A stretch of 64,000 bases of DNA from Escherichia phage WPEC6. The DNA lies in sequence record PV763039.1. One strand, 5' to 3'. A model generated the notes under the pieces. That model did not search any database, was not told the origin of the DNA, and was given only the letters and a program-made list of their open reading frames with translations. Position 1 is the stretch's first letter, and each line of letters starts with the position of its first letter. Of the stretch, positions 14,539-15,189 are shown piece after piece. The translations under genes were made by a program, and so were the position numbers.

Positions 14539-14979
14539 TTTGAAGGCGTGTCTGAAAGTTTTTCCTACGCCAATAACTCCGCAATATTTTTCTAAACGTA
14601 GATGTTTTAGAATACCTAAGACTTTTGTTTTAGCTGCTTGGAAGGTGTGTCCGATATCTTCTGGCGGGTATTGCTTATCAATGATTTCGAACTCTTCCTT
14701 TGTGAAGGGACGTTTGTTTTTGGAGGCTCTTTCTGCATTTGTATCTCCTAGCCAACCTCCAATTTTAGTCTTGCTTTTACCCCAAAACTCTGTCTTATTT
14801 TTAAATTCCTTTTGAGCACCTGAAGGGATGTGCTTCGCAATGATTGTTCTTTTCTCTAATGCAGACGCTGCTTGGAAAGCGATCTGATCATAATCAATTG
14901 CAGCTATTGTTTCTTCGTTGACATATAAATGAAGATCTTCAGGTTTAATTAAAATATAACCGCTAATATTTCCCCCTAA

Positions 14980-15189
14980 TTATTCATCGTCATCCTCTGT
15001 TGAGAATGTTTTAGTATACGGACATTGACGACTTTTCGGGATTGCTATAACTTCATCTTGGTTAGCGTTAGAATAGTAGCAATATTTTGTATTGCCATTA
15101 ACTTCAGAATCAGACAAGATTAAAGTAATTTGACCTGCTGCTACTGTGAAACTAAAAGCTAAAAGAACGACTGTCAGAATCTTTTTCAT
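14980..15189 (-). CDS. small secreted protein with signal peptide
   Basis: MKKILTVVLLAFSFTVAAG signal-like N-terminus; RBS aggagg; TAA stop in frame with downstream ORF. Confidence 0.5.
   Translation of the reverse strand: MKKILTVVLLAFSFTVAAGQITLILSDSEVNGNTKYCYYSNANQDEVIAIPKSRQCPYTKTFSTEDDDE

Follow-up and report, generated by a model that had tools for sequence, protein, structure and literature searches.

Translation in Escherichia coli can be initiated at AUU, AUC and AUA with ~1-2% of the efficiency of AUG, and infC and pcnB are the only E. coli genes for which an AUU start is confirmed (10.1101/063800). The infC gene uses AUU or AUC across bacteria, and its product, the initiation factor IF3, autoregulates its own synthesis by discriminating against such codons (PMC5499595). 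In pcnB, the AUU start belongs to the gene of a nucleic-acid enzyme, poly(A) polymerase I, and pcnB orthologues in other lineages begin with AUG, GUG or UUG. The weak start of pcnB limits how much of a harmful enzyme is made; UUG and GUG starts are themselves weaker than AUG. Among phage enzymes, the FEN-family exonucleases of T5, T4 and T7 start at ordinary codons. We describe here a phage exonuclease gene that, judged by comparison of sequences, is most likely of the infC/pcnB kind, with initiation at AUU, AUC or AUA (hereafter AUH).

The window analysed is a 64,000-nt stretch of the Escherichia phage WPEC6 genome (PV763039.1), and the genes under study lie on its minus strand. Positions 13700-15400 are 100% identical in the Escherichia phages WPEC4 and WPEC2 and match 43 records from the phAPEC8-like group (Phapecoctavirus, Stephanstirmvirinae) with at least 99% identity. 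On the minus strand, an ORF of 69 aa (15189..14980) ends with a TAA at 14982..14980 and is followed, in the same frame, by a stop-free stretch of 441 nt, or 147 codons (14979..14539), that holds no ATG, GTG or TTG and continues into an ORF of 229 aa (13849..14538) with its ATG at 14538. The original prediction had given this layout and these coordinates, and re-reading of the minus strand confirmed all of them, including the 147-codon open frame that lacks a canonical start and is closed by the TAA.

The window has 99 frames that run for at least 100 codons from stop to stop, and the start-less lead described here is the longest among them, the runner-up having 75 codons and the median being 5. 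Given the codon usage of the window, where ATG, GTG and TTG together make up 5.2% of sense codons, the probability of 147 codons without a canonical start is ~3.6e-4, and that of 147 random codons remaining stop-free at the base composition of the window is ~3.6e-5. The start-less open stretch is thus more than a product of chance. The start-less leads that rank next in length (75, 55, 44, 38, 36 and 30 codons) gave no PHROG match, and those of them that were compared with the ORF list all lie opposite minus-strand ORFs. The exonuclease is the sole case of a start-less gene in the window.

We then asked what the stretch encodes. Searched alone, its 147-aa translation matched PHROG 107 (exonuclease) with E=5e-7 over profile positions 110-185, which bears out the earlier description of this translation as protein-like. 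The 229-aa part matched positions 191-378 of the same profile, directly adjoining the first match, and the whole stop-to-stop translation gave a single match with E=1e-55. A tblastn search with the 376-aa translation found 1212 phage records, 900 of which had at least 80% query coverage at one place; the alignments start at query residues 1-5 and reach ~370, and they include relatives at 78%, 42%, 37% and 30% identity. In distant relatives, the gene is annotated at full length (PBES 02, 370 aa; CarlMeissner, 379 aa; Iguana, 373 aa; PAK_P5, 362 aa).

Two alignments of homologues, with 9 (A1) and 59 (A2) sequences, were used to examine conservation inside the stretch. Asp25 (codon at 14895..14893, minus strand) is invariant, and Asp27, Glu38 and His46 are conserved, Asp27 being nearly invariant. 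Arg40, Gly50, Asp97 and Lys113 are invariant among the nine closer homologues, and the conserved residues Phe55 and Thr59, from invariant alignment columns, also fall within the N-terminal part. Nucleotide differences between the stretch and six relatives affect third codon positions most; against L021 (a locus of Justusliebigvirus type; loci are designated by L numbers), they are distributed 42/29/83 over codon positions 1/2/3. This coding type of conservation extends over lineages down to ~53% identity. The 441 nt form the 5' portion of a single exonuclease gene, with a proposed product of 372 aa. The proposed coding sequence occupies 13849..14967 on the minus strand (372 codons plus stop, starting with ATT), and the N-terminal 142 codons that follow the ATT (14539..14964) are absent from most public annotations.

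From the ATT, the window has no canonical start for 143 codons, so that Met, GTG and TTG are all absent from the translated N-terminal part (within 14539-14979, minus strand). Relatives do carry in-frame GTG or TTG codons in this part, such as codon 33 (GTG) in ECGD1 and codon 17 (TTG) in L020, counted along the stop-free stretch; the absence looks like chance and not like avoidance of internal starts.

To place the protein in a family, an AlphaFold2 model of the 372-aa form was computed from the 59-sequence alignment (mean pLDDT 96.4, pTM 0.90). In this model, the whole protein forms one FEN-type folding unit, with a PIN-like alpha/beta core and a helical DNA-binding region. Its N-terminal part supplies the strands 16-25, 39-46, 93-100 and 127-137 and the helices 26-36 and 105-123. 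The best Foldseek matches in the PDB were the T5 D15 flap endonuclease, E. coli ExoIX and the Pol I 5' nuclease, with a probability of 1.0. Eight carboxylates are invariant across the 59 homologues (Asp25, Glu180, Asp182, Asp183, Asp210, Asp212, Asp272 and Asp275); their number and order would be consistent with the active site of T5 FEN, and they are candidates for a metal-binding cluster. At the sequence level, the window protein had no match in Pfam, NCBIfam or the PDB, phmmer and profile searches included. PF02739 (5_3_exonuc_N) was matched by 16 of the 59 homologues, all below the gathering score (24-28 bits versus 34.3). Because curated sequence models give no match above their cutoffs, FEN membership rests on the PHROGs and the fold. 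In contrast to the phage FEN family of T5 D15, T4 RNase H and T7 gp6, the window protein lacks a significant sequence match to PF02739 or to PDB chains, and it has an insertion of ~60 residues after the first strand-helix unit (~39-95) that those enzymes do not have. As modelled, the protein is a divergent FEN-fold 5'-3' exonuclease of the phAPEC8-like phages (Phapecoctavirus).

The model bears on the reading found in the public databases, in which only the 229-aa protein is made, from the ATG at 14538 (14536..14538, minus strand; Met148 when counted along the stop-to-stop frame, Met144 in the 372-aa form), and the sequence before it is a decaying, pseudogenised 5' half. This ATG is the first canonical start of the frame, and it is the one annotated in most of the GenBank records inspected. 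On the other hand, no Shine-Dalgarno (SD) sequence was found in the sequence read upstream of it (ACGCCTTCAAAATG), and the alignment shows that this Met is not conserved in the orthologues of the outgroups, namely Vequintavirinae and PAK_P5. The conservation of the stretch in a coding manner also speaks against decay. A protein begun at Met148 would, according to the model, be half a domain, devoid of the invariant Asp25 and of half of the core fold, including four core strands of a single-domain protein. We therefore regard the 229-aa product as very unlikely to be the whole protein.

The head of the stop-free stretch was then inspected for a start site. Its first codons are TTA GGG GGA AAT ATT AGC GGT TAT. 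They contain an SD sequence, AGGGGGA (14971..14977, minus strand; core GGGGG at 14976..14972), a spacer AAAT and, as codon 5, an ATT (14965..14967) that lies 4 bases past the SD and 12 nt past the TAA of the 69-aa ORF. The duplex with the 3' end of 16S rRNA has a predicted energy of -9.3 kcal/mol in the window, and the GGAGG cores of relatives reach -10 to -13 (-12.9 at the lowest). A spacer of 4 nt is among the shortest that functional SDs have. The RNA around the start (111 nt) folds no better than shuffled sequences (z=-0.07), and for this reason no structural element is proposed there. These features suggest that translation very probably starts at the ATT at 14967..14965, behind a strong SD.

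One prediction of an ATT start is that the arrangement should be kept in relatives. Start-region orthologues were collected from GenBank, IMG/VR and Logan/ENA assemblies and anchored on the ATT codon, and ~25 loci were read. In every AUH-type lineage examined, down to ~53% identity, an SD core GGAGG or GGGGG is followed after 4-5 nt by AUH, and at least 10 lineages have ATT, ATC or ATA at this codon. ATT is found in the window, phAPEC8, ASO2A and nieznany, in Justusliebigvirus (phi92, ECGD1, SD2 and L021/22), in a group at 65% identity (L025-L030/L032) and in L104, L105 and L106. ATC is found in the cultured E. coli phage phiWec179, L020, L023, L024 and L099, and ATA in L031 and L107. Since ATT, ATC and ATA are synonymous Ile codons, their alternation is a pattern also expected of an ordinary internal Ile codon. 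In L024, an in-frame TAA abuts the ATC on its upstream side, and in L023, the L025 group and L031 in-frame stops lie 1-4 codons before the AUH; initiation is therefore not further upstream. No canonical start was seen near the site in the relatives inspected down to ~65% identity, the first in-frame one being 5-32 codons downstream.

The outgroups provide a further comparison. The N-terminus I-S-G-Y-I... aligns with M-G-Y-P, V-G-Y-P and L-S-x-Y-P in Vequintavirinae. The codon aligned to the ATT is a canonical start there: ATG in PBES 02, L038 and L044, GTG in Iguana, and TTG in CarlMeissner, L047 and L050. These ATG, GTG and TTG starts of Vequintavirinae and related orthologues have the same SD spacing as the AUH loci, and the aligned starts can be nearly superimposed, as with ATG GGT TAT in PBES 02 and ATC GGT TAC in L024. 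These data strongly support the non-canonical initiation (ATT/ATA) that the original prediction had listed among its options, the order of SD, spacer and AUH being kept in relatives.

At the two most distant loci of AUH type (53-57% identity; L106 374-403 and L107 43-72), the frame has an ATG, not preceded by an SD, 9 codons further down. Either or both starts may be used in L106 and L107, as in a transition state from AUH to AUG, and AUH may perhaps not be the start in use there.

We also considered a start slightly inside the gene, at the in-frame ATT at 14955..14953 or at 14949..14947, which would give a protein 4-6 residues shorter. Both codons are in frame, and the first of them is conserved in Justusliebigvirus. 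The first 8 residues also appear dispensable, the distant homologues P0025 and P0027 being called from an ATG aligned to 'PEDL'. However, with 16 and 22 nt between them and the SD core, these codons would be out of reach for initiation directed by the SD, and their columns are not kept as AUH, since ATC, ATA, ACA and AAA occur. Moreover, codon 2 after the proposed start is kept as Ser through AGC, AGT or TCA in different lineages, and this switch of codon family with retention of the amino acid indicates that it is translated. The G-Y motif shows the same pattern, its amino acids being kept across switches of codon family, and the peptide I-S-G-Y-I-L-I runs on into the conserved protein. We consider the inner ATT codons improbable as starts and retain the ATT at 14967..14965.

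The original prediction had set non-canonical initiation side by side with three other options, namely read-through or suppression giving a signal-peptide fusion, a recent nonsense mutation and a sequencing error; the first stands, and the other three did not survive the comparison. If the TAA at 14982..14980 were read through or suppressed, or if ribosomes shifted frame, the signal-peptide protein would be fused to the exonuclease. Such a product could be imagined from the window, where the two ORFs share a frame with one TAA between them, and from the presence of a 444-aa "fusion" protein in a protein database. In close relatives, however, the frames differ, the upstream ORF being in the +1 frame in L020/phiWec179 and in Justusliebigvirus (L021, L022, ECGD1 and phi92), and two stops separate the ORFs in L024, the L025 group and L031. 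The exonucleases of the outgroups begin at the homologous codon behind unrelated upstream genes, and a signal peptide on a DNA exonuclease would make little biological sense. A fusion is extremely unlikely.

The 444-aa protein itself (P0005; L099 1501-2835 of Logan SRR30397360, in a cluster of 48 sequences) was rejected as an artefact, the DNA having an in-frame TAG at the junction, where the protein shows Gln. The gene caller evidently adopted a code in which TAG is Gln, since the longer ORF scored better when no canonical start was available. The start-less gene thus corrupts automated prediction of the genetic code in this case.

As for an error of sequencing or assembly, or a very recent nonsense or start-loss mutation in this isolate, nothing beyond the missing canonical start speaks for it. 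Across the 81 nt that surround the site, 52 records from independent phage genomes show 100% identity and 126 records, which come from many laboratories and platforms, show conservation, and independent metagenome assemblies show the same architecture. The comparison of orthologues proposed earlier found no continuous ORF across the relatives examined, the 444-aa artefact apart. We give no credence to either explanation.

The gene upstream was examined next. The product of the 69-aa ORF has a signal peptide, two conserved Cys residues and an acidic C-terminus (DDDE); it matches PHROG 4641 (function unknown) with E=7e-27, and its phi92 orthologue, gp086, carries a SignalP annotation. All close relatives keep the ORF in synteny, with rdgC on one side and the exonuclease on the other; its frame relative to the exonuclease is 0 or +1. 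A small putative secreted protein is unexpected within a module of replication and recombination genes. At other loci, the neighbour is an HNH/homing endonuclease gene instead of the small ORF: immediately upstream of the exonuclease in the Vequintavirinae-type relatives PBES 02 (L008 1-391) and Iguana (L012 1-356), and near it in ICP1 (L011 1-102).

In the gap between rdgC and the small ORF, a consensus scan gave a promoter-like site that matches the sigma-70 type well, TTGACT-17-TATTAT with an extended -10 TG (15257..15229, minus strand). It is directly followed by a hairpin that resembles a terminator, being rich in GC and having a T run (15228..15205, minus strand). In ASO2A, a terminator is annotated at the place equivalent to 15205..15257, which is a possible candidate for a transcription-unit boundary. 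The order is odd, the promoter match preceding the terminator-like hairpin.

The proximity of the two genes raises the question of whether the AUH start is reached mainly, or even solely, by ribosomes that terminate at the stop of the small ORF and begin again 5-20 nt further on. Such coupling would tie exonuclease output to translation of the secreted-protein gene, and would modify the reading of an AUU start rather than exclude AUU. In every relative with the small ORF, its stop is within or just before the SD, ~8-21 nt before the AUH. L106 has a different upstream gene, for a methyltransferase, that still ends 9 nt before the ATT, and the canonical-start orthologues are also tightly packed against upstream genes or overlap them. 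Yet the very change of upstream gene, in L106 as in Vequintavirinae, argues against such coupling, and the conserved strong SD at optimal-to-short spacing would be less needed for pure re-initiation. Coupling would not offer an escape from IF3 discrimination either, since overexpression of IF3 also reduces re-initiation (PMC2268962). We regard coupling as possible but doubtful, and return to SD-directed initiation at the ATT.

We looked for a phage tRNA that could read AUH as an initiator. The window carries 10 phage tRNA genes in a cluster at 25702-27627. The tRNA-Ile(GAU) at 27397-27470 has its 1-72 end paired and was set aside as an ordinary elongator. CAU is the anticodon of both tRNA-Met genes, and a phage initiator that reads AUH found no support. 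One of these, the tRNA-Met(CAU) of 79 nt at 27549-27627 (plus strand), has an initiator-like unpaired A1/C72 atop the acceptor stem (ARAGORN) and is devoid of the three G-C pairs in the anticodon stem; from these features, it could be a phage-encoded tRNA of initiator type.

We next surveyed how the gene is recorded publicly. Only the 229-aa ORF is annotated in phAPEC8 (GenBank and RefSeq), ASO2A, nieznany, iGC_PHA_EC001 and WPEC4. The records of phi92, ECGD1 and SD2 start the exonuclease at a GTG 32 codons downstream, with the remark 'No RBS identified; weak Prodigal statistics' in that of phi92, and the record of phiWec179 starts it at a TTG 12 codons past its ATC. Some public records place ORFs of 30-40 aa in the gap, and several fill it with small ORFs in other frames, such as phAPEC8_00121 (40 aa) and WPEC4_CDS215/216 (at window 14616-14738, minus strand, and at the equivalent of the latter); these are almost certainly spurious because the exonuclease frame covers the region. 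The exception is ESCO13 (KX552041.2), which has the identical gene and, as a bare database annotation, a 372-aa 'putative exonuclease' (AQM50955.1) that begins at exactly this ATT and is accompanied by an RBS feature. Among 60 records sampled, no other had an exonuclease CDS over the start site. The ESCO13 genome announcement (PMC5374246) makes no mention of the ATT start, and our search of the literature on phAPEC8 and ESCO13 start codons and on non-canonical phage starts found no description of it. The clade-wide AUU/AUC/AUA pattern and the systematic mis-annotation thus appear unreported, the ATT call itself being already present once in GenBank. Nearly all inspected records list a truncated protein because the gene most likely starts at a rare ATT: in all but one of those from Phapecoctavirus and Justusliebigvirus, the entry is a fragment of 229 aa or 344 aa without part of the active site.

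We propose that the SD would position the 30S subunit at the AUU and that initiator fMet-tRNA would pair with this codon despite the mismatch at the third position, a pairing that IF3 would disfavour. The N-terminus would then be (f)Met and not Ile, and the exonuclease yield would be low, perhaps a few per cent of that from AUG. The weakness of AUU would be offset in part by the strong SD and possibly by ribosomes that come from the upstream ORF.

The locus resembles infC in that one particular gene has kept an AUH start across its orthologues, as AUU in some lineages and AUC in others (PMC5499595), and in the third-position mismatch with the initiator tRNA and the discrimination by IF3, both of which are proposed for the phage gene. 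It differs in that the AUU of infC is the sensor of an autoregulatory loop whose product is IF3, whereas the phage product is a DNA exonuclease; any dependence on IF3 would therefore be passive. The phage clade also uses AUA, unlike infC, and the phage start is a prediction from sequence comparison. With pcnB, it shares an AUU start on a gene for a nucleic-acid enzyme and the use of canonical starts in other lineages, here Vequintavirinae. The two differ in that pcnB belongs to the host, and in the near-consensus SD that accompanies AUH in the phage. The occurrence of UUG, GUG and AUG in sister lineages would fit selection for modest expression and does not prove it. That the AUH start is a conserved regulatory device, an infC-like sensor borrowed by a virus, is a tentative idea that we hold to be rather unlikely on the present comparison.

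Correct gene models matter here for phage engineering and safety dossiers, these phages being candidates for therapy (PMC5374246). This gene family, with its AUH codons behind a strong SD, would offer a clean natural system for studying IF3 discrimination, compensation by the SD and translational coupling during infection. If the regulatory idea held, AUC and AUA would be documented for the first time as natural initiation codons of coliphage-type genomes, an exonuclease that potentially degrades host DNA would be under AUH control, and its synthesis would be tied to the balance between initiation factor and ribosomes or to the ribosomes delivered by the upstream secreted-protein gene.
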